Shown: one piece after another, positions 3,711-62,077 of the stretch
Position numbering within the stretch: the first letter of the stretch is position 1
Layout of the letters: each line of letters begins with the position of its first letter
IMG/VR virus record: IMGVR_UViG_3300036861_000916
Location: 1-62,077 of that record
Source of the DNA: a virus
Direction: 5' to 3' (one strand)
DNA: 62,077 nt
Translations under genes and position numbers: made by a program
The notes under the pieces: generated by a model
What the model saw: only the letters and a program-made list of their open reading frames with translations
Told to the model about the DNA's origin: nothing
Database searches by the model: none

Positions 3711-4175
3711 ATGGCGGACGTCTTCTTTACACACGGCAAGAGGGCAATCGCTGACCAAGCGGCAGCGGACGCGATCAACCTTGTTGGCACGACCGTCAAA
3801 ATTGCCCTGGTCGACTCGACCTACGCGCCCAGTCCAGACGATCAGTTCGTTGATGACGGCAGCGCGAACGATGTCACGAGCCATGAGATCAGCGTCACGG
3901 GCTACACGGGCGGCTTCGGCGGTTCGGGACGGAAGTCCCTCGCTGGCAAGTCGATCACGGCGGACCTCACGAACGACCGCGCCGAGTTCGACGCCACTGA
4001 TGTCACATGGACGGCGCTCGGGACGGGGGCGACGATCGGCGGCGCGGTGCTCATCAAGGAAAGAACCGCCGATACTGACTCGCAGGTCATCGCCTTTTTT
4101 GACCTGACGAACACCCCGACGAACGGTGGAGATGTGACTCTAAGTTTCAACGTAGAAGGGTTGCTTAACTTCTAG
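3711..4175 (+). CDS. hypothetical virion protein
   Basis: ATG 3711 (MADVFF...) in frame of track ORF 3678..4175, GGAGGAGAAG 6 nt upstream. Confidence 0.6.
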   Translation: MADVFFTHGKRAIADQAAADAINLVGTTVKIALVDSTYAPSPDDQFVDDGSANDVTSHEISVTGYTGGFGGSGRKSLAGKSITADLTNDRAEFDATDVTWTALGTGATIGGAVLIKERTADTDSQVIAFFDLTNTPTNGGDVTLSFNVEGLLNF

Positions 4176-4214
4176 AACTCGCGTCGCCCTTCGCGTTACC
4201 GTCGTTCGTAGGAG

Positions 4215-4592
4215 GTGCCCGTGTCCGCCGATATCCCGAACTGGCAGATCGACCAGGCGCGTGAGAGCTTCAACGAGAGCCTGCCCTCCGTGGCGCTCGT
4301 GCAGCACCGCACGTCTGCGAGCGATGGGCGCGGCGGGCAGACGGAGAGCTACGACGCGGGGACCGCACTCGACTGCCGCTTGCTGCAAATGGGTTCGCAG
4401 GAGTCGGCGGGGCGCGAGGAGGCAACGGGGCACGTCGCGAGCTCCTGGTGGAACATCCTGCTGCCGGCGGGTTCCGACGTGCGGACGACGGATCGTATTG
4501 TGATCGATGGTCAGACCTATGAGGTGATCGATCACGGAGACGCGAGGAGCCAGTCGCTGGTGATGAAAGTCGCGGCGCGAAGGGTGAAGTAA
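4215..4592 (+). CDS. head-tail adaptor / head-closure protein (SPP1 gp16-like)
   Basis: 125 aa, GGAGG upstream of GTG, C-terminal ...RIVIDGQTYEVI... pattern and position typical of the family (from memory). Confidence 0.55.
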   Translation: MPVSADIPNWQIDQARESFNESLPSVALVQHRTSASDGRGGQTESYDAGTALDCRLLQMGSQESAGREEATGHVASSWWNILLPAGSDVRTTDRIVIDGQTYEVIDHGDARSQSLVMKVAARRVK

Positions 4593-4595
4593 GGT

Positions 4596-4719
4596 GTGCA
4601 GGGAGGCAGCACCCCCACACGCGTGGGGAAATGTTCGTGGCCCCCGTGTCCACAGGCACGAGCTGCGGTCCACCCCCACAGGCGTGGGGAAATGAGCAAA
4701 CTATGGCGCCTCCCTGCAC
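4596..4719. repeat. 12-bp perfect inverted repeat bracketing the mini-CRISPR array
   Basis: GTGCAGGGAGGC at 4596..4607 and its reverse complement GCCTCCCTGCAC at 4708..4719. Confidence 0.85.
4605..4694 (-). CRISPR. mini-CRISPR array: 29-nt type I-E-like repeat, 32-nt spacer, degenerate terminal repeat
   Basis: Minus strand: CATTTCCCCACGCCTGTGGGGGTGGACCG (4694..4666) / spacer 4665..4634 / CATTTCCCCACGCGTGTGGGGGTGCTGCC (4633..4605); 61-nt period, CCCCAC-N4-GTGGGG stem, 8-nt tail ending ACCG. Confidence 0.7.
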
Positions 4720-4766
4720 GATAGGATTATCGGCTGCGCGCGGCCTCATCTGGAGGGTGACTTCCG

Positions 4767-5123
4767 TTGGCTGCTGATGCCATTACCATCAAACTGGTCG
4801 TCGAGAGCAACAAGCTGACTGGGCTCCCGGCGGCGGTGCGCCGCCGACTTTCACTCGCGGTGCGCAAGGTCGCCGCCGATGTCCAAGCGCGGGCGCAGCA
4901 GGTCGTGCCCGTAGACACGGGGGCCACGAAGAACTCGATCCGGGCAAAGGCGGTCGACGAGCTGACGTCCGAGGTCGTTGTCGGCACCCATTACGCGGCG
5001 TATCTGGAGTTCGGCACGCACAAGATGCCGGCCCGGCCTTATCTGCGGCCCGCGGTGGAGGCGGTGCGGCCCGCGTTCGAGGCGGCGATCGGGCAGGCGA
5101 TCGAGGAGGCGGCGGGCGGATGA
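4767..5123 (+). CDS. HK97 gp10-like head-tail/tail-completion protein
   Basis: 118 aa with VPVDTGATKNSI ... YAAYLEFGT ... ARPYLRPA, the hallmark pattern of the HK97-gp10 family; TTG start. Confidence 0.8.
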   Translation: MAADAITIKLVVESNKLTGLPAAVRRRLSLAVRKVAADVQARAQQVVPVDTGATKNSIRAKAVDELTSEVVVGTHYAAYLEFGTHKMPARPYLRPAVEAVRPAFEAAIGQAIEEAAGG

Positions 5124-5293
5124 GAACGCCAAAGCGGAATATCCTCATCTTCGTCTGCGAACGCTGCAGTCACGAATGGGCGGACGAGGCGACAGGCCGT
5201 CTTGGCGCGAGGCACTGGTGTCCGGTTTGCCATCGCGGGCGTGGCGAGTTTAAGTCTGCTGCGAGGCAGCGGGAGGCGGCGGGCGGTGGCTGA
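5120..5293 (+). CDS. small zinc-ribbon protein (57 aa, below ORF-track cutoff)
   Basis: ATGA overlap with upstream stop; CERC-x17-CPVC; its stop overlaps the GTG 5286 start of the next gene. Confidence 0.4.
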   Translation: MRTPKRNILIFVCERCSHEWADEATGRLGARHWCPVCHRGRGEFKSAARQREAAGGG

Positions 5294-5726
5294 CATCAAT
5301 GAGCTGGGCCTGTGCGCGGAGTTCCTCTTCGAGGAGCTGACCGGGCACGCGCCACTCACCGCGCTCGTTGGCGACCGGGTCTATCGAGACCTCGCGCCGC
5401 CGGGGGCTGCCCTGCCGTATGCCATCTTCTCGTTCGTGGCGGGCTTGGACCGTAACGCGATGGGAAGCCGCTCCATCATCTTCACGCGGCCCTTCTGGGA
5501 CATCAAGGGCGTCACGAAGGGCACCGACAGCACGGCGGCGGACGCCATCGCCGACGCGATCCACGGGGCCGTGAACGGGAAGCAGCGGCTCAATGTGGCC
5601 GACGGCGAGCTAATCGTCCTCGGTTGCCGCAGGGAGAGCCTGATCGAGTTCCCGGAGCTGACCGAGGACCAACTGTATCTGCACCGCGGCGGAGAATACC
5701 GCGTCTTTTGCCACATCAAGCGATAG
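5286..5726 (+). CDS. DUF3168-like tail terminator / tail completion protein
   Basis: GTG 5286 in frame of track ORF 5202..5726, GGGAGG upstream; ...LTALVGDRVYRDLAPPGAALPYAIFSFV... typical of the family; sits just before the major tail gene. Confidence 0.6.
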   Translation: MADINELGLCAEFLFEELTGHAPLTALVGDRVYRDLAPPGAALPYAIFSFVAGLDRNAMGSRSIIFTRPFWDIKGVTKGTDSTAADAIADAIHGAVNGKQRLNVADGELIVLGCRRESLIEFPELTEDQLYLHRGGEYRVFCHIKR

Positions 5727-8654: not shown

Positions 8655-8690
8655 GACAGGCCGAAGGTTTCATGCCCCCGGCCTGTTCCG

Positions 8691-8794
8691 GTTCGCTTCG
8701 TCTCGGCTCGGCTCGCTTCGACTCGGCTCGCCTCGCTTCGGCTCGGGTCGCTTCGCTTCGGCTCGGGTCGCTTCGGGTCGGCGAGCGGTTCAGC
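8691..8794. repeat. pentanucleotide array (NNTCG)x18 plus GGCGAGCGGTT end motif
   Basis: 18 consecutive 5-mers ending in TCG (8691..8780) followed by a motif resembling the punctuation of the 34.8-35.4 kb array. Confidence 0.9.
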
Positions 8795-18834: not shown

Positions 18835-18851
18835 TGCCCTCCAGCCACCTT

Positions 18852-18966
18852 GCCGGGCCGCGCCGTGCCCAGCCTAGCCGGGCCGCGCCTTGCCCCGCCT
18901 CGCCCATCCACGCCCTGCCGTGCCAAGCCACGCCCGGCCGTGCCATGCCTTGCCCTGCCCCGCCGT
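18852..18966. repeat. pentanucleotide array (GCCNN)x23
   Basis: 23 consecutive in-phase 5-mers, 22 GCCNN + 1 TCCNN; fills almost the whole 133-nt gap between convergent stops at 18834 and 18968. Confidence 0.9.
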
Positions 18967-18967
18967 G

Positions 18968-19603: not shown

Positions 19604-19625
19604 GATATGCCTCCTTGAAGTGAGT

Positions 19626-19810
19626 GCCGCGCCGTGCCTCGCCACGCCATGCCGAGCCGGGCCGTGCCCAGCCACGCCTTGCCTTGCCCTGCCCAGCCCC
19701 GCCTCGCCCTGCCTTGCCCATCCTAGCCGCGCCTGGCCTGGCCACGCCGCGCCGAGCCTTGCCACGCCGCGCCCTGCCGCGCCTTTCCGTGCCGTGCCTT
19801 GCCGTGCCCG
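19626..19810. repeat. pentanucleotide array (GCCNN)x37
   Basis: 37 consecutive in-phase 5-mers, 35 GCCNN + 2 TCCNN; begins 8 nt upstream of the SD of 18968..19603. Confidence 0.9.
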
Positions 19811-28490: not shown

Positions 28491-29168
28491 CTAGGCGAGC
28501 TTCAAGACCGGCCAGCCCCGGCGCCGCAGGAAGCCGAGAGCTCCGAACCCGAGCAGCCCCAGCGAGCAAGGCTCGGGGACCGGGGTCGGCTGACAGTCGC
28601 TCTTGTCGTAGCGGAACTGCGCCATGGCGAAGTCCACGTCGGAGTGCGCCACGACCTTCGAGAACAGGGCGCCATCGTCCACCGAGGCGAACAGACGCGC
28701 GCCCGCCGCGCCATCGACGGAGCGCGTGATGCTACCCAGCAGCACGTCGCCGGCGTCGTAGAAGTCCGCTGTGATGTCGTGCAGCGCGAATGGATTGGGC
28801 TCCGCCTCGAAGCCGAAGATGCCCGTCGGCGCGCCGAGGAGCATCGTCACCGAGGTTGCTCCCTTGGTCCACAGGACTGCGGGGGTGGCGCTCTCACTGT
28901 CCGGTGGGCTGCTCCAGGTTGCCCAGCCGCCGCCCGGGACCGTCCGCTTCTGCATCGTGCTGCTGAAGCTCACCGTCTCTGTGCCGTCCGTGATCGATCC
29001 GACGTCGGTAAAGTTGGGCAATCCGCTGATGTCGATCTTCGTGGTGGCGAAGGTGTACAGCACGGACGGCGAGGAGATGTCCTCGAACGTCGCGTAGCTC
29101 GGACGGGCGAACCCGGAAAAGAGCATCCCGATCGCGAGCAACGTTCCCAGCTTGGCAAATCCCTTCAT
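28491..29168 (-). CDS. PEP-CTERM-anchored secreted protein
   Basis: ATG 29168 with AAGGAGGAAG upstream; N-terminal signal peptide; C-terminus VPEPCSLGLLGFGALGFLRRRG = PEP motif + TM + Arg cluster. Confidence 0.7.
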   Translation of the reverse strand: MKGFAKLGTLLAIGMLFSGFARPSYATFEDISSPSVLYTFATTKIDISGLPNFTDVGSITDGTETVSFSSTMQKRTVPGGGWATWSSPPDSESATPAVLWTKGATSVTMLLGAPTGIFGFEAEPNPFALHDITADFYDAGDVLLGSITRSVDGAAGARLFASVDDGALFSKVVAHSDVDFAMAQFRYDKSDCQPTPVPEPCSLGLLGFGALGFLRRRGWPVLKLA

Positions 29169-29561
29169 CGCACTTCCTCCTTCGTAACAAGGCGCCCAGT
29201 GTGATCCTCCGGGCGGCAACTGCGGCGCGGCCTGCACATCAGGCCCGGGCGTCGCGCTAGAGCGTCTGCAGCCGGCGCGCCTCGACAGCGAGGACAACGA
29301 GGATAGCGAACGTGGCGAGACACGCCTTCGTCATCGCGATGGCGTAAGCGGCGATCATTGCGAACTCTCCGGCGGCGTGTCCCATGTTCGTTCTACCTCT
29401 TTGTTCGGCTGTCAAGCGTGCATTCAACTGACAGAGAGAGGATACCGGGACCGAGTTCGAGTGTCAAGAGGTCTCCGGTCAGTAATTTCAAGAACCTGGC
29501 GGAGAGGCGGCGGCGGAGTTCAATCGAATGCCCCGCCGTGGGGACGAGGTAGATATTCCGT

Positions 29562-31065: not shown

Positions 31066-31260
31066 TCACCGGGCCGCCTCATCGGCATAGGCCTGGCCGC
31101 AGAAGGGACAGAAGTCGGCGACGAGCGCGACCGGAATTCTGCCGGGCGAGGTCGAGATCACGCCGATGATGACGCGCGGGTCATCGCCGAGGGTCACATT
31201 CAGCTCGGTATCCCACTGCGACAGATACTCGTTCTTTTCGGCGATACAGTTGCACGCCAT
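31066..31260 (-). CDS. hypothetical small protein
   Basis: ATG 31260 overlaps TAA of the GGDEF gene (TAATG); 64 aa. Confidence 0.4.
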   Translation of the reverse strand: MACNCIAEKNEYLSQWDTELNVTLGDDPRVIIGVISTSPGRIPVALVADFCPFCGQAYADEAAR

Positions 31261-31919
31261 TACGCCGCCTCGACCTCGTCGCAGAGCAACTGCTGCAGCG
31301 GGAGGCTCTCGCACAGCAGGCGCAGGCTCCGGGGACGGCAGCCGCGGGCCGCACGCAGGCCCGCCTTCTGCCGAGCCTCCTTCATCGCGCGCAGGTGCGC
31401 CTCCGCTTGCTCGCGGGTCTCGCCGAACCCGAAGGAGCAGCCGGCGCCGGTCGCCGCGCGGGTCTCACCGTCCTCGCCGCGCCAGGCCCAGGCAGCATTG
31501 CGGAAGCGTCGGTCGAGCTGGATGAGCCGGCGCCAGATGGTATCCCTGTCCTCCTCCGTCCGGAACCGTATGCAGAACTCATCGCCACCGACGCGATACG
31601 GGAGACTGCGCTCCTGGAAGCAGGATAGAACAAATGTTTGCAGCATGCTGTCTCCTGCCTGGTGGCCCAGATGGTCGTTCACAAATTTCAAGCTGTCCAG
31701 GTCCAGGATGGCCATGTACGCGCACGGCGCCGCAGACTCGGCATCCTCGAAGGCGCGTGCGGAGAGGGATCCGGTCAGGCGGTCGACGAGGAGTTCCTCT
31801 ACCAGCTCCTCGCGGCTCATCTCCGCGATGCCCTGTCGGCGCTCCAGGTCGTGCCTGCGCTCCGGGCCGGCGTAAGCGGGAGCGGCGGTGAGGATGTCGG
31901 TATCGGTCAGCGTGTTCAA
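31260..31919 (-). CDS. stand-alone GGDEF-domain protein (putative diguanylate cyclase)
   Basis: TTG 31919 (TTGA coupling, GGAGGGA upstream); DRLTGSLSARAF...ILDLDSLKFVNDHLGHQAGD...YRVGGDEF. Confidence 0.75.
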   Translation of the reverse strand: MNTLTDTDILTAAPAYAGPERRHDLERRQGIAEMSREELVEELLVDRLTGSLSARAFEDAESAAPCAYMAILDLDSLKFVNDHLGHQAGDSMLQTFVLSCFQERSLPYRVGGDEFCIRFRTEEDRDTIWRRLIQLDRRFRNAAWAWRGEDGETRAATGAGCSFGFGETREQAEAHLRAMKEARQKAGLRAARGCRPRSLRLLCESLPLQQLLCDEVEAA

Positions 31920-32299
31920 GGCAGGTCCCTCCCAAGGAAAAGCGTGTCGACGAAAGCGATGGGGAGTTGTAGAGTAAATTCCAGCATCCGCCTCTGGCAC
32001 TCCAGGCCGGCGGGCGTGGCTCCCAGCGTCTCGGCCTGGCAGTAGGCGCTCACAGCCTCCTCCACGGTCTCCGCAGCGACCGGCGCCTCTGGGTGCGCGT
32101 CGTTCCAGCGGCGGACGAGGGCCTTCGCGCGCTGCTGCATCAGATAGTGGTTCACGAACTCCCCCACGAGCGCCGACTGCGGCTTCTCGACCTCTGCGGG
32201 CAGCCATTGGTCGCCTCGCTCCACCCACATCGCGGCGCAACCGCACCGGCAGACGATTCGCCCGTTTTCTGCGGGACTGCCGCAAACCGGACAGGTCAT
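31916..32299 (-). CDS. N-terminal zinc-ribbon protein
   Basis: 127 aa; MTCPVCGSPAENGRIVCRCGC; AAGGAGGAGAGA upstream of ATG. Confidence 0.5.
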   Translation of the reverse strand: MTCPVCGSPAENGRIVCRCGCAAMWVERGDQWLPAEVEKPQSALVGEFVNHYLMQQRAKALVRRWNDAHPEAPVAAETVEEAVSAYCQAETLGATPAGLECQRRMLEFTLQLPIAFVDTLFLGRDLP

Positions 32300-32323
32300 G
32301 TCTCTCCTCCTTGCGCGGGCCGG

Positions 32324-32363
32324 AGTTCAACTGCCGGCCAATCAATTAGGCTACGGTTCAACC
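32324..32363. promoter_or_regulatory. pair of AGTT(C/G)AACT palindromes 31 bp apart
   Basis: AGTTCAACT 32324..32332 (centre 29 nt upstream of ATG 32299) and GGTTCAACC 32355..32363. Confidence 0.45.
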
Positions 32364-34092: not shown

Positions 34093-34154
34093 ATTCCTTT
34101 CTGGTTGGGCGGGGAGGGCAGGTTCCCCGCGCAGGTTCCCCGCGCAGGTCGCTG

Positions 34155-34780: not shown

Positions 34781-35364
34781 TCAGATCGCGTCGAGTCGGC
34801 TCGGATCGGATCGGTTCGATCCGGTTCGAACCGCGTCGCATCGACTCGGGTCGCTTCGGTTCGCATCGCGCCTATTCGTCGAACGTTTCGTCTCGCTTCG
34901 GTGCGGATCAGATCGTGTCACTCCGCGTCGCGTCAGATCGAAGCGAATCATTGAACGCGTCGCTTCGGTTCGGATCGCGTCGATTCGGTTCGAGTCGTTT
35001 CGGCTCGGCGAACGTTTCGTCTCGCCTCGCCTCGCCTCGCTTCGGCTCGGTTCGGCTCGGTTCGGCTCGCGTCGCTTCGCTTCGCCTCGCCTCGGCTCGC
35101 ATCGGTTCGTCGAGCGCTTCGGCTCGCGTCGCCTCGGCTCGCTTCGGGTCGGCTCGATTCGTCTCGGGTCGCTTCGCGTCGGCTCGGGTCGGCTCGTCGA
35201 ACGTTTCATCTCGCGTCGGCTCGCGTCGCGTCGCTTCGCTTCGGCTCGGATCGTTTCGAATCGCGTCGGGTCGTCGAGCGCTTCGGATCGGCTCGCCTCG
35301 AGTCAGTTCGCGCCGCGTCGCGGCGGATCGGTTCGACTCGGCTCGGCGAACGTTTCGCGTCAGG
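34781..35364. repeat. pentanucleotide super-array: six runs of (NNTCG/TCGNN)n separated by CGAACGTTTCG / CGAGCGCTTCGG punctuation
   Basis: Runs of 17, 10, 18, 16, 13 and 13 in-phase TCG pentamers; punctuation at ~34876, 35007, 35108, 35195, 35271, 35345; open in several frames on both strands. Confidence 0.9.
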
Positions 35365-35989: not shown

Positions 35990-36216
35990 AACTCCTCCTT
36001 CTTGTCACGCCGAAGATTAACCCCTCGGCACCGCTCTGTGCGGATGGTTGAAGTATACAGACGCAGCGCTGGAACTGCAAGGGGTCAGGCGAACTATTTC
36101 TCGCAGTGCAACGAGACAGGCTGAACTTTCGCTCGGAAGGGATTGCTTCGGTGGCTGTCAAACCGGTAAACTCGCGGCGGGCGCTTGAACCGCCGCACAA
36201 CCGAAGGAGGGCACAG

Positions 36217-37377
36217 TTGAAGGGTCATTTGAGAGAACGGTCGCCCGGTTGTTTTGAGTGTATCGTCAGCCTGGGGCGTGGCCCGGACGGCAAGCCGCGC
36301 CAGAAGAGTCGCACGGTGCGCGGCGGGGTCCGCCTCGCGCAGCGCACGCTCAACACTATGCTGGCGGATGTCGGCTCCGGCAAGCTGAAACCGGCTTGCG
36401 GTGAGACGGTTGCGAGCTACCTGGAGGCCTGGCTCGCGACAACGGGCGCCCTGCGCTTGAGCCCGAAGAGCCATCAGTCCTACTCGGGCGTCTTCCGCGT
36501 CTGGGTCATTCCCGAGCTGGGAGCCTTGCCGCTGGAGAAGTTGACCGCGCGCGACATCGAAGCGTGGCTGGTGCGTGCCTCAGCGCCCGGGGCGCGGCGG
36601 GACGGCAGGGCGGGCTCCCTCTCTCCAGGAAGTCTGCGGCACTACGTCAGGCTCCTGCGCGCGGCGCTGCAGGATGCCGTCCGGCAGGAGCGGCTGCTGC
36701 GGAACCCGTGCGACACCGCAGCGAAGCCCCGGGTTACGCACGAGGAGGTGACAGCGCTTTCGGTGGAGGAACTGCGGCGCCTCGTCCCGGCGACCAGCGG
36801 GCGGCTACGGATCGCGGTGCTGCTCGGTGGGATGTTGGGCTTGCGCGCTGGTGAGTGCGTCGCGTTGCAATGGGCCGACATCGATTTCGGCGCCGGCGTT
36901 GTCACCATCCGGCGCTCGCTGGAGGACACGAAGAAGCGCGGCCTGCAGTTCAAGCTGCCGAAGAGCGGCAAGACGCGCAAGCTGGCGCTGCCGGAGGCCC
37001 TGGCACGCGAGTTGCGGCGGCACAAGGGCGAGCAGGCGACGCAGCGGTTGCAGCTCGGCGACGGGTGGCAGAACAACGACCTGGTCCTCGCGCGCGAAGA
37101 CGGCTCCATCTGGTCCCGGGGCGCACTGTCGACGGCGTTCCGGGACCAGGCGCTTCGGCTTGGGCTGCCCACGACACGCTTCCACAGCCTGCGGCATTCG
37201 TGCGCCACCGCGCTCTTGGGCTGCGGGCAGGGTGCAGCCGTTGTGCAGGCCGTGCTGGGACACAGCACGCCCTCCTTCACGGTGCAGGTCTACGGCCACG
37301 CACTCCCGGAGCACATGCGGGAAGCGGCGCGTGTGATGGATCGCGCGATGGGAGATGCACTGGGGGCCGTTGGATGA
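36217..37377 (+). CDS. int: tyrosine recombinase / phage integrase
   Basis: TTG 36217 (GGAGGG upstream) in frame of track ORF 36106..37377; N-terminal SAM-like arm, C-terminal ...HSLRHSCAT...LGHS...Y catalytic pattern. Confidence 0.85.
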   Translation: MKGHLRERSPGCFECIVSLGRGPDGKPRQKSRTVRGGVRLAQRTLNTMLADVGSGKLKPACGETVASYLEAWLATTGALRLSPKSHQSYSGVFRVWVIPELGALPLEKLTARDIEAWLVRASAPGARRDGRAGSLSPGSLRHYVRLLRAALQDAVRQERLLRNPCDTAAKPRVTHEEVTALSVEELRRLVPATSGRLRIAVLLGGMLGLRAGECVALQWADIDFGAGVVTIRRSLEDTKKRGLQFKLPKSGKTRKLALPEALARELRRHKGEQATQRLQLGDGWQNNDLVLAREDGSIWSRGALSTAFRDQALRLGLPTTRFHSLRHSCATALLGCGQGAAVVQAVLGHSTPSFTVQVYGHALPEHMREAARVMDRAMGDALGAVG

Positions 37378-38561: not shown

Positions 38562-38633
38562 TTTGGCCTGGTGTAATGGGTAACACGCCCGGCACTGAAC
38601 CGGGAGACGGAGGTTCGAGGCCTCCGGCCAGAC
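38562..38633 (+). tRNA. tRNA-Gln(CUG)-like, with A instead of U at position 33
   Basis: 72-nt cloverleaf folded by hand: TTTGGCC/GGCCAGA acceptor (U1-A72 as in bacterial tRNA-Gln), GTGT/ACAC D, CCCGG-CACTGAA-CCGGG anticodon arm, GGAGG-TTCGAGG-CCTCC T-arm. Confidence 0.6.
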
Positions 38634-38674
38634 CCGAACCCAGATTGATGAGCCGCCGGTAGCAGAGGCGGACG

Positions 38675-39243: not shown

Positions 39244-40053
39244 TCAGCGATCGGCGCCGGTCGCGGGGACACCAAGGGCCTTGCGGATCCGGCGCAGCGC
39301 CCGCCGCTCGATGAGTGCCACGCGCTGTGGAGAGCAGCATACCGCCCTCGCTATCTCGCGGCACGTCTGCCGATCCTCATAGGGTGCGAGTCCATACCGG
39401 CGGAGGAGGAGGTCCCGCTCGCGCTCGCACAGCACGGAGAGAGCGCGGTCGCATAGAAGGGCGTCGGTTACGGCTTCATCGATCGGGGGATCGTCGGAGG
39501 GGAGCACGTCGATCAGTGGGAGGCCCTCGTTGTCATCGCTCGCCGAGGTGCTCGCCTCGAACGGTATCGCCTCCTGGGGCAATGCGCGGAGCCAGGCGAC
39601 CCGCTCCTCCGTCCAGTCCAGCTCGCGGGCGATCTCCTCGTCCGAGGGCGCGCGGCCCTCTCTCGCCTCTAGTTGCCGGACCGTGGCAGTGACCTGGCGA
39701 AGGGCCTTCTGGGCGCCAAACGAGAGCCGGATGCTCCGGGAGTGTCTGTCCATCGCCTGGTAGAGAGTATTCACGATCGAGTGATGCGCGTATGTCGCGA
39801 GCCGTGCGCCCTTTGCGGGATCGAAGCCGACCAGCGTGCGCAGGAACGCCAGTCGCGCCTCCTGGAGGGCGTCATCCGGATCCAGGAAGCTTGCGTGGAT
39901 CCGACCTGCGAGTTGGCGGATGAGGCGATGGTGTGCGGCTACGAGCCTGCGCGACGCCTCCGCCGGGTCCACATCGTGGCGCTTGCCCTGCACGCACAGG
40001 CAGAGCATGACTTCCTCTTCGCGGCTCATCCGCTCCGTCTCCATCGCCATCAC
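39244..40053 (-). CDS. sigma-70-family RNA polymerase sigma factor (group 3-like; regions 2, 3 and 4)
   Basis: 269 aa; ...DDALQEARLAFLRTLVGFDP.KG.RLATYA...; C-terminal ...RQTCREIARAVCCSPQRVALIERRALRRIR region 4 HTH. Confidence 0.85.
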   Translation of the reverse strand: MMAMETERMSREEEVMLCLCVQGKRHDVDPAEASRRLVAAHHRLIRQLAGRIHASFLDPDDALQEARLAFLRTLVGFDPAKGARLATYAHHSIVNTLYQAMDRHSRSIRLSFGAQKALRQVTATVRQLEAREGRAPSDEEIARELDWTEERVAWLRALPQEAIPFEASTSASDDNEGLPLIDVLPSDDPPIDEAVTDALLCDRALSVLCERERDLLLRRYGLAPYEDRQTCREIARAVCCSPQRVALIERRALRRIRKALGVPATGADR

Positions 40054-61124: not shown

Positions 61125-62077
61125 CGTCACCGCCCTCAACCAGCTAATCCAGACTGCCGGGGAGCACATCCTCCCGCAGGCGCCCACGGCCTCGGCGACG
61201 AAGGCCCTGCTGCGGATGGGCAATGCCCTCGTCGGTGGTGACGCCGATGGCTGCTACCTTGGGCTCAACGCGCCCAGTGGCTGGGTCGGCGACTACCTGC
61301 GCATTCAGCTCAACGCCGTTGATGTGCTCCGGCTCGACAGCCTCGGGAACCTCGGCGTTGGGGTCTCCGCCCTCTCGGGCTTCCGCATCCACGCCGAGGC
61401 CGACGGCAACTTCGACAACATGGTCCGTGTTAACAACGTTAACACGGGCAATGGTGCCGCCGCCGGCTCCTCGGTGCAGGTGCGCTGCGGGGGCACTGAC
61501 ACGGCCAGTGGTCGCCTAGCCGCGTGGGGGGGGAGTCACGCCTCAACCCTGCGGGCCAACCGGGTCAGCGTCGTTGCCAACTCGGACGCCACCGGTATCA
61601 CCCTGGAAGCCGACAACGCCTCGCAGGACATCCGATTCGCCGTCGCCACCCTTGGCGAACAGATGCGCCTCTCCAGTTCTGCAGAACTGTTGCTTGGCAC
61701 AACGTCCTCACTGGCGCGGCTCGCAGTCGTGGGCCGGGCGGATCAGATTCAGTGTGTGGTGAGAGGTTTCAGCACCCAGACGACACACCTCCAGGACTGG
61801 CAGACGAGTGGCGGGGCCGTTCTCGCGTACGTTCAGGGAGATGGCCCATGCTATTTCCCCCAGGCTGGCATTGGCGTTTTCGCTGCACAGGCCGGCGTTG
61901 GACTCTTCGTCACGGGCGGCGACACAGCGGCAGTGACCCAGGTTTTGCGTCAGTTGACGTCCCAGACGGGTCACCTGCTGGAGGCTCGTGACGACAGCAA
62001 CGGGAGCCTCTTCACCTTCACGAACATCGGTGATCTGACGTTTAACCGCCGCTCCTCGACGACAGGTGGGCGCCAGG
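61111..62077 (+). CDS. fibre-like structural protein, 5' part (continues through the junction to 408)
   Basis: ATG 61111 overlaps the previous gene by 14 nt; frame 1 read codon-by-codon has no stop up to the window end, so it is absent from the ORF track. Confidence 0.65.
   Translation, partial: MLRNDVTALNQLIQTAGEHILPQAPTASATKALLRMGNALVGGDADGCYLGLNAPSGWVGDYLRIQLNAVDVLRLDSLGNLGVGVSALSGFRIHAEADGNFDNMVRVNNVNTGNGAAAGSSVQVRCGGTDTASGRLAAWGGSHASTLRANRVSVVANSDATGITLEADNASQDIRFAVATLGEQMRLSSSAELLLGTTSSLARLAVVGRADQIQCVVRGFSTQTTHLQDWQTSGGAVLAYVQGDGPCYFPQAGIGVFAAQAGVGLFVTGGDTAAVTQVLRQLTSQTGHLLEARDDSNGSLFTFTNIGDLTFNRRSSTTGGRQ
61966..62077. repeat. terminal overlap, copy 2
   Basis: identical to 1..112. 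Confidence 0.95.

Follow-up and report, generated by a model that had tools for sequence, protein, structure and literature searches.

A single-spacer type I-E CRISPR unit in an uncultivated temperate phage and its near match to the phage's own gp10-like gene

Introduction

What purpose might a lone CRISPR repeat-spacer-repeat unit serve in a phage whose own structural gene nearly matches the spacer? Single-spacer mini-arrays carried by viruses have been described as targeting close relatives of the carrier, with the carrier's own locus point-mutated and the targets lying near the array (PMC6858448, PMC7099407, PMC11656645), and one survey counted 835 two-repeat mini-arrays in viral genomes (bioRxiv 2023.03.03.530964). 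A first-pass annotation of the window, by which we mean the whole 62,077-nt stretch of DNA analyzed here, proposed that its one spacer targets closely related competitor phages while the carrier escapes through a seed mutation. On the evidence below, the element is best read as a further example of the viral mini-CRISPR arrays already described. We put at roughly 55% the probability that it is a virus-borne type I-E mini-array without cas genes that serves phage-phage competition and is accompanied by a self-escape allele.

Results

The carrier phage

The window is a complete contig whose ends overlap by 112 bp, so it is circular. Its capsid module comprises large terminase, SPP1-type portal, Mu-F, scaffold, HK97-fold capsid, and head-completion genes, and the tail genes include gp10-like, gp17-like, major tail, and tape measure genes as well as RcGTA-like distal tail genes (DUF2460, phiJL001 gp84, BR0599, and Rcc01698_C). 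Genes for an amidase, an endolysin, tRNA-Gln, a sigma factor, a methylase, and a GGDEF protein are also present, and a tyrosine integrase (Table 1) marks the carrier as temperate, so that the array could be expressed from a lysogen. The GTA-like tail module and a GC content of 66% suggest an alphaproteobacterial host, and the carrier is probably a siphovirus-like phage of such a host; the best matches among cultured phages compared for host assignment were below 50% amino acid identity. Cas domains were sought with Pfam or PHROGs in the ~40 largest open reading frames (ORFs), and none were found. No type I-E cas operon lies beside the array in the ORFs scanned, which makes the array an orphan.

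Table 1. Positions of the array, its flanking elements, and the related genes in the window
Feature	Coordinates	Strand	Details
Head-completion (Hc1-like) gene	4215..4592	+	Upstream of the insert; PF05521, phrog_501
Insert	4593..4766		174 bp between the head-completion and gp10-like genes; holds the array, its leader side, and the inverted-repeat arms
Left arm of perfect 12-nt inverted repeat	4596..4607		GTGCAGGGAGGC; overlaps the degenerate R2 end
Repeat R2, distal	4605..4633	-	CATTTCCCCACGCGTGTGGGGGTGCTGCC (reverse complement of these positions)
Spacer, 32 nt	4634..4665	-	CAGCTCGTGCCTGTGGACACGGGGGCCACGAA (reverse complement of these positions)
Repeat R1, leader-proximal	4666..4694	-	CATTTCCCCACGCCTGTGGGGGTGGACCG (reverse complement of these positions)
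Right arm of perfect 12-nt inverted repeat	4708..4719		GCCTCCCTGCAC; 13 nt upstream of R1 in crRNA sense
Weak sigma-70-like candidate promoter	4726..4754	-	TCCAGA-N17-GATAAT; 8/12 matches, below the scan threshold; the only candidate for the array
HK97-gp10-like gene (Neck1/tail completion)	4767..5123	+	Holds the protospacer; PF04883, E 5e-9; phrog_5, E 2e-24
Self-protospacer PAM position	4896..4898	+	CAG, codon Q44
Self-protospacer	4899..4930	+	29/32 versus spacer; mismatches 4 (seed), 12 (a sixth position), and 15
Tyrosine integrase	36106..37377	+	PF00589

Anatomy of the array

The CRISPR unit occupies the minus strand at 4605-4694 and consists of two 29-nt repeats flanking one 32-nt spacer; this spacer length is canonical for type I-E, and the repeat period is 61 nt. 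R1 would give the crRNA its 8-nt 5' handle (GUGGACCG); over 100 genuine arrays of 61-nt period have repeats that differ from it by 2 to 5 nt. The first 21 nt of R2, corresponding to the 3' handle and hairpin, are intact except for one loop base, and its last 5 nt are degenerate. That single loop base distinguishes the hairpins of R1 and R2, and both loop variants (GCCT and GCGT) are present in genuine arrays. Each repeat folds as a 7-bp stem with a 4-nt loop, like the E. coli I-E repeat.

By the Cas6e cleavage rule, the mature crRNA is predicted to consist of GUGGACCG, the 32-nt spacer, and CAUUUCCCCACGCGUGUGGGG. The degenerate last 5 nt of R2 are dispensable, since by this rule they are absent from the mature crRNA; every part that would enter it is intact, and decay is limited to those 5 nt. 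Just two copies of the repeat core, R1 and R2, occur in the window, and a search across it for other generic I-E-type hairpins found none beyond them. A tandem repeat at 34118-34149 (GCAGGTTCCCCGC) was considered as a second repeat unit and rejected, as it has no hairpin complement. An Rfam search of the array region matched no family.

Subtype and orientation

The repeat belongs to a class with the core GTxTTCCCCACGCxTGTGGGGGTG(A/G)ACCG, found as 61-nt-period arrays in more than 100 genomes and prophage-flanking regions. In one of these (L109) a same-class array lies directly 3' of cse1-cse2-cas7-cas5-cas6e-cas1e-cas2e on the same strand, and in another (L039) such an array lies downstream of Cse1, Cas7e, and Cas6e genes, again on the same strand. 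Because of this placement after cas genes, both the I-E subtype and the crRNA sense, which is the minus strand of the window, are fixed. Of the features of a type I-E array, the 29-nt repeat length, the Cas6e-type hairpin, the 32-nt spacer, and a sense fixed by reference to cas operons are present. The type I-E assignment and minus-strand orientation of the first-pass annotation are therefore borne out by the cas-linked arrays and the hairpin folds, and a plus-strand reading is set aside.

A repeat search for the host matched 119 stretches from very diverse phyla. None of the fetched arrays had an identical repeat, the best being that of a low-GC cyanobacterium (51-58% GC; 2 mismatches), and comparison of 1263 spacers from the fetched I-E arrays with the phage and its relatives gave no real match.

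Match of the spacer to the carrier's own gene

The spacer matches plus-strand positions 4899-4930 (CAGGTCGTGCCCGTAGACACGGGGGCCACGAA) at 29 of 32 positions, the mismatches falling at spacer positions 4, 12, and 15; no comparable match arose in 100 dinucleotide-preserving shuffles. The near match to the phage's own HK97-gp10-like gene that had been noticed earlier is thereby confirmed, with the correction that spacer and protospacer lie 233 nt apart rather than 235. The match grows to 33 nt when the last G of R1 is allowed to pair with G4898. Similarity otherwise stops exactly at the repeat borders, as befits a spacer-protospacer pair and not a local duplication of the gene fragment.

Position 4899 is a first codon position, so that the spacer and self codons at the three mismatches read CTC/GTC (Leu/Val), CCT/CCC (silent), and GTG/GTA (silent), in agreement with the original reading. 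The seed of E. coli I-E guides is said to have been placed by Semenova in 2011 at positions 1 to 5 and 7 and 8, a range that includes mismatch 4. In E. coli Cascade structures, every sixth position, here 12, is flipped out. The sixth-position rule for I-E guides is restated elsewhere (bioRxiv 2023.03.03.530964). The protospacer spans the invariant P48 V49 D50 G52 K55 motif of gp10-like proteins, and both the conserved nature of the target and the CAG on its 5' flank are as first annotated. The spacer itself translates to QLVPVDTGATK and has the subclade-specific residues Q45 and T54, which are common to the carrier and its closest relative (P0002).

Relatives and the Hc1-gp10 junction

A Logan contig (L025, SRR11742962) is 100% identical to the window at the nucleotide level over 9.3 kb and has the same array, PAM, and protospacer. 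The array junctions are thus identical in two assemblies, the JGI contig that forms the window and the Logan contig, which provides assembly-independent support and no evolutionary conservation; the array was seen in a single genotype only. In the closest relative (L012, from IMG/VR), whose gp10-like protein is 82% identical in amino acid sequence, the Hc1-gp10 junction holds a different insert of ~270 bp with a small ORF. The corresponding site in L012 reads AAG followed by CAGATCGTGCCCGTGGACACCGGGGCCACGAA, a 29/32 match to the spacer with mismatches at positions 4 (seed), 12, and 21. Another genome (L154) combines an L030-like gp10 sequence, with AAG and 14 protospacer mismatches, with a junction insert homologous to that of L012. 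L026 to L032 and L155, with gp10-like proteins of 53-72% identity where measured and 10 to 14 protospacer mismatches, have no insert, and their Hc1 and gp10-like genes abut or overlap. From this comparison, the junction is a hot spot for cargo, and the array is one of several alternatives that occupy it.

Residue 44 is Lys in 12/12 relatives, down to 35% identity, and Gln in the carrier only. At the DNA level, the PAM codon was read in nine relatives and is AAG in eight and AAA in one, with CAG in the carrier only. The relatives do not, then, carry the self allele, as they might have done had the competitor-targeting proposal been wrong. The spacer, self, and L012 alleles are mutually 3 differences apart, and seed position 4 is triallelic, with C in the spacer, G in self, and A in L012. 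Given that the alleles are equidistant, that position 4 is triallelic, and that Q45 and T54 are shared, the source of the spacer was a third, unsampled close relative. A protospacer directly after a conserved AAG, with a PAM-derived G, is the footprint that would be expected of genuine I-E Cas1-Cas2 acquisition.

Compared with L012, the window is 92% identical over 3980-4594, unalignable over 4595-4838, ~81% identical over 4839-4960, and ~98% identical over 4961-5726; the array and the self-protospacer therefore sit in the same divergent mosaic segment. Excess divergence from L012 at the 35-nt PAM-plus-protospacer was not significant (4 differences, with at least 4 in 14.7% of windows), so that escape selection is inseparable there from recombination or the overall divergence of the segment. 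Only K44Q, which alters a residue conserved elsewhere, is suggestive of escape selection. The claim of seed escape thus stands in part: relative to the spacer, the carrier's own locus is mutated at 3 positions, one of them in the seed (position 4), and has CAG in place of AAG as the PAM codon, but the self changes are statistically indistinguishable from the divergence of the segment.

Searches for a target

Three patterns, including one by amino acid back-translation, retrieved no perfect or seed-matching protospacer from IMG/VR, returning only L012 and an unrelated low-GC phage (L153). A blastn search of GenBank phages with PAM plus spacer gave 17-nt noise only, and a search for gp10 and Hc1 homologues among 5.8 billion proteins yielded 12 relatives, 0 of which had the spacer allele. 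No gp10 relatives were found in the genome collection, and JGI metagenomes contributed distant ones only among the matches listed. A perfect protospacer with an AAG/ATG-type PAM, which the first-pass annotation had suggested looking for among relatives, was found in none of IMG/VR, the GenBank phages, and the 5.8 billion proteins.

Flanks of the array

A perfect 12-nt inverted repeat brackets the array inside the insert, and together with the degenerate R2 end it pairs over ~16 bp in the RNA fold (minimum free energy of -71.7 kcal/mol, z -4.4). Inverted repeats of this kind number just 6 in the 62 kb of the window, which makes an array-bracketing placement unlikely by chance. No target-site duplication, T-run, copy elsewhere, or counterpart in relatives was found for it, and a transposon-like origin was rejected given that there is neither a target-site duplication nor a copy elsewhere. 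The bracketing repeat could be a pre-crRNA end-stem, an RNase III site, or an older hairpin that took in the unit.

A standard promoter scan detected no promoter above threshold for the array. The candidate listed in Table 1 lies 31 nt upstream of R1, and a transcript from it would begin roughly where the bracketing inverted repeat does, at its first base. The array leader showed no similarity to the leaders of the fetched genuine arrays, and no AT-rich, IHF-type leader was recognizable at the array.

Discussion

Competition between related phages as the preferred reading

On this reading, the mini-array is an accessory element carried at a cargo hot spot within the head-tail connector module. 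If it serves competition, its transcript would come from the minus strand, opposite in sense to the late operon and hence independent of late transcription, and the crRNA would most plausibly be made in the lysogen or early in infection. In a host with a cognate I-E system, Cas6e would cut after both repeat hairpins to release a 61-nt crRNA (GUGGACCG, the 32-nt spacer, and CAUUUCCCCACGCGUGUGGGG), which Cascade would take up and, with Cas3, use to destroy incoming relatives whose gp10-like gene reads AAG followed by CAGCTCGTGCC... A phage allele that is a perfect target would read AAG followed by CAGCTCGTGCCTGTG... at the equivalent of 4890-4935, with codons CTC/CCT/GTG at the variable sites. 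The carrier's own copy would be spared by the mismatch at seed position 4, along with those at 12 and 15, and by the change of the PAM codon from Lys (AAG) to Gln (CAG).

The mini-array anatomy, the shared Q45 and T54, and the AAG in 8/9 relatives support the competitor targeting proposed at the outset; against it, no perfect or seed-matched target appeared in the collections searched, and L012 is likewise mismatched at seed position 4. In E. coli I-E systems, CAG falls in the interference-proficient PAM group and promotes adaptation (PMC6568314); by that standard, K44Q would be no clean PAM escape, and the seed mismatch would have to provide the self-protection. A further expected cost is priming, since an imperfect match to self can drive primed adaptation against the carrier (PMC7099407).

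Comparison with known arrays

One repeat-spacer-repeat unit in a viral genome, with no cas genes in the ~40 ORFs scanned, has the features of a mini-array. The virus-borne mini-CRISPR arrays described before (Faure et al. 2019; Medvedeva et al. 2019, on SPV1/SPV2; and the model of Iranzo et al. 2020) are alike in having one spacer and no cas genes and in having repeats of a type found in host arrays, here those of the I-E class. Further likenesses are a spacer from a close relative of the carrier, an orthologous locus in the carrier that is point-mutated, a target near the array, and carriers that are mostly temperate or chronic (here, temperate). In contrast to those arrays, this one is of bacterial type I-E in an uncultivated high-GC phage, has no reciprocal or perfect target among the collections searched, shows no leader like those of the fetched arrays, and lies between the arms of a perfect 12-nt inverted repeat. 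The carrier is also altered at the family's nearly invariant PAM codon.

With canonical arrays of the E. coli K-12 type, the unit shares 29-nt repeats that end in ...ACCG and fold with a 4-nt loop on a 7-bp stem, a 32-nt spacer, a 61-nt period, a PAM-derived G at the junction, and AAG in the source family. It differs from them in its single spacer, in the lack of any cas operon found in the 62-kb genome and of a recognizable AT-rich IHF-type leader, and in lying within a phage structural operon on the antisense strand.

Alternative explanations

The near match would look the same if the phage had merely escaped a host spacer that was captured later. Under this explanation, seed and PAM changes freed the phage from host immunity, and a fragment of the host array subsequently recombined into the phage, where it is now neutral, nonfunctional cargo. 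The degenerate 3' end of R2 is typical of the last repeat of an array, and the loop-base difference between R1 and R2 is not expected right after duplication of a repeat in situ. The scans revealed no strong promoter, the array is present in one genotype only, and ordinary escape from host immunity explains the self mismatches equally well. We nevertheless regard such a captured relic as unlikely: the crRNA-forming parts are all intact, with decay confined to a dispensable part; the 12-nt inverted repeat around the array has the look of a structural addition; relatives keep accessory genes at this hot spot; and for at least one virus pair, mini-arrays built in this way have been shown to function (PMC6858448).

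It is less likely again, though worth considering, that the unit produces an anti-CRISPR or regulatory RNA. Its repeats could act as Racr-like decoys for Cas6e or Cascade, or its guide could redirect Cascade, in the manner of Cracr or crlRNA, to a host cas promoter or toxin gene, the gp10 match being historical. Solitary repeats and mini-arrays of phages are documented in such roles (PMC10651486; bioRxiv 2024.10.29.618823; bioRxiv 2023.03.03.530964), among them the I-E Cracr array of a Salmonella prophage, and the host genome may contain a 10- to 20-nt target. The Racr (Camara-Wilpert et al. 2023) and Cracr/crlRNA (Liu et al.; Shmakov et al. 2023) elements resemble the present unit in being intergenic cargo with phage repeats that need host Cas proteins. 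Racr is, however, a solitary repeat without a spacer (PMC10651486), whereas here two repeats flank a canonical 32-nt spacer, and both are near-canonical and not merely repeat-like. The I-E Cracr pseudo-spacers are 21 to 24 nt long and directed at host cas promoters (bioRxiv 2024.10.29.618823); the spacer found here is a full 32 nt and directed at a phage structural gene. Its 29/32 match to such a gene, with AAG in the relatives, is of a kind tied to inter-viral targeting (PMC11656645, PMC7099407). A decoy effect on Cas6e or Cascade may still accompany the array as a side effect.

Self-regulation is highly improbable. In this scenario, Cascade carrying the crRNA would bind the gp10-like gene of the phage itself without cleaving it and so repress the late operon, for instance, in lysogeny. 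The target does lie in the phage's own late operon, 233 nt from the spacer, and in the CreTA and crlRNA systems a partly complementary target is bound but not cleaved (bioRxiv 2023.03.03.530964). Yet the known cases keep the PAM and seed and are mismatched distally (bioRxiv 2023.03.03.530964), whereas here the changes affect the seed and the PAM codon and leave the distal part intact; the target also falls mid-gene, on the non-template side, rather than at a promoter. A chance resemblance, local inverted duplication, or assembly chimera, for which only the short distance between the two copies speaks, is effectively refuted by the zero chance expectation for the near-self match, its termination at the repeat borders in canonical I-E geometry, and the identical junctions in the JGI contig and an independent Logan assembly.

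Implications

If the competition reading is correct and the array functional, the phage would be a clean bacterial type I-E case of a phage that equips its lysogen with a guide aimed at sibling phages, in which the logic of PAM, seed, and self-escape can be read directly from the DNA. It would not be a new kind of system, hundreds of viral mini-arrays having been catalogued already. The perfect-target, self, and L012 alleles make up a compact test case that could address how carriers of mini-arrays keep clear of self-interference and priming, whether PAM position -3 is of consequence in bacteria other than E. coli, and why targets adjoin the array.

On the last of these points, array-target proximity was reported as unexplained by Medvedeva et al. 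2019. A speculative extension, which we think rather unlikely, is that the array forms, with the resistant allele of the gene it targets, a tightly linked weapon-plus-immunity cassette (~4595-4960) that moves by homologous recombination between related phages. Such a cassette would have structure-forming inverted repeats around it and would occupy a cargo hot spot. Recombinants gaining the spacer would then also gain the escape allele, which would explain why spacers of viral mini-arrays target sites near the array, and mini-arrays would act like bacteriocin-immunity or poison-antidote pairs driving phage speciation.

A two-spacer mini-array of the same repeat class was also observed in another phage contig (L011), where it lies beside a head-morphogenesis gene.

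Cargo at the head-completion/gp10 junction

Comparison of the phage with its relatives identifies the junction between the head-completion gene and the HK97-gp10-like gene as a cargo hot spot. In the window, this junction is occupied by the mini-array, while in L012, the closest relative phage, and in L154, another relative, the cargo is a small-ORF insert encoding a hydrophobic, membrane-like peptide and a conserved peptide, the latter bearing a CxxC motif in L012. Relatives L026 to L032 and L155 carry no insert at this junction.

Within the gp10-like gene itself, alignment to L012 revealed a sharp mosaic boundary, with divergence of approximately 19% up to position 4960 and approximately 1.6% beyond. 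The first 24 codons of the gene are closer to the L030 type than to the L012 type. Further downstream, the window and L012 share a small zinc-ribbon-like ORF (CxxC...CxxC), inserted so that it separates the gp10-like gene from the gp17-like gene; the two flanking genes overlap in L026 to L030 and L155.

Flanking repeats and a second phage mini-array

A perfect 12-nt inverted repeat flanks the repeat-spacer-repeat unit on both sides. Only six inverted repeats of this kind occur in the 62-kb window, and the bracketing pair is absent from the relatives. In the predicted pre-crRNA, the inverted repeat together with the degenerate 3' end of R2, the distal repeat, would form a stem of approximately 16 bp.

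Another phage contig, L011, also bears an I-E mini-array, whose repeats belong to the same class as those of the window. It consists of three repeats and two spacers, with an additional solitary repeat, and a head-morphogenesis gene (phrog_241) lies directly downstream. No match to the L011 spacers was found inside the 10.5 kb of L011 itself.

Genome ends and other content

The contig termini share an exact direct repeat of 112 bp, indicating that the contig represents a circular, complete genome of approximately 61,965 bp. Unusual cargo for host interaction consists of two proteins, one with a PEP-CTERM motif and one with a GGDEF domain, together with a sigma-70-family factor and a tRNA-Gln. 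At four sites, apparently mostly in gaps between predicted ORFs, the sequence runs into long tracts that are degenerate but keep strictly to a period of 5 nt (unit TCGCC/TCGGC... or the complement GCCxx).

Coordinates of the features described (window unless indicated)
Feature	Position	Strand
Junction insert	4593-4766	
Junction insert, L012	607-860	
Junction insert, L154	1218-1546	
Segments compared with L012	4839-4960; 4961-5726	
Zinc-ribbon-like ORF	5120-5293	
Inverted-repeat arms	4596-4607; 4708-4719	
L011 (IMGVR_UViG_3300050508_000452) repeat region	876-1338	
L011 mini-array	1187-1338	
L011 solitary repeat	876	
Terminal direct repeat	1-112; 61966-62077	
PEP-CTERM-motif protein	28491-29297	-
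GGDEF-domain protein	31260-32345	-
Full sigma-70-family factor (regions 2-4)	39244-40053	-
tRNA-Gln(CTG)	38562-38635	+
5-nt-period tracts	8689-8783; 18848-18967; 19624-19808; 34796-35343
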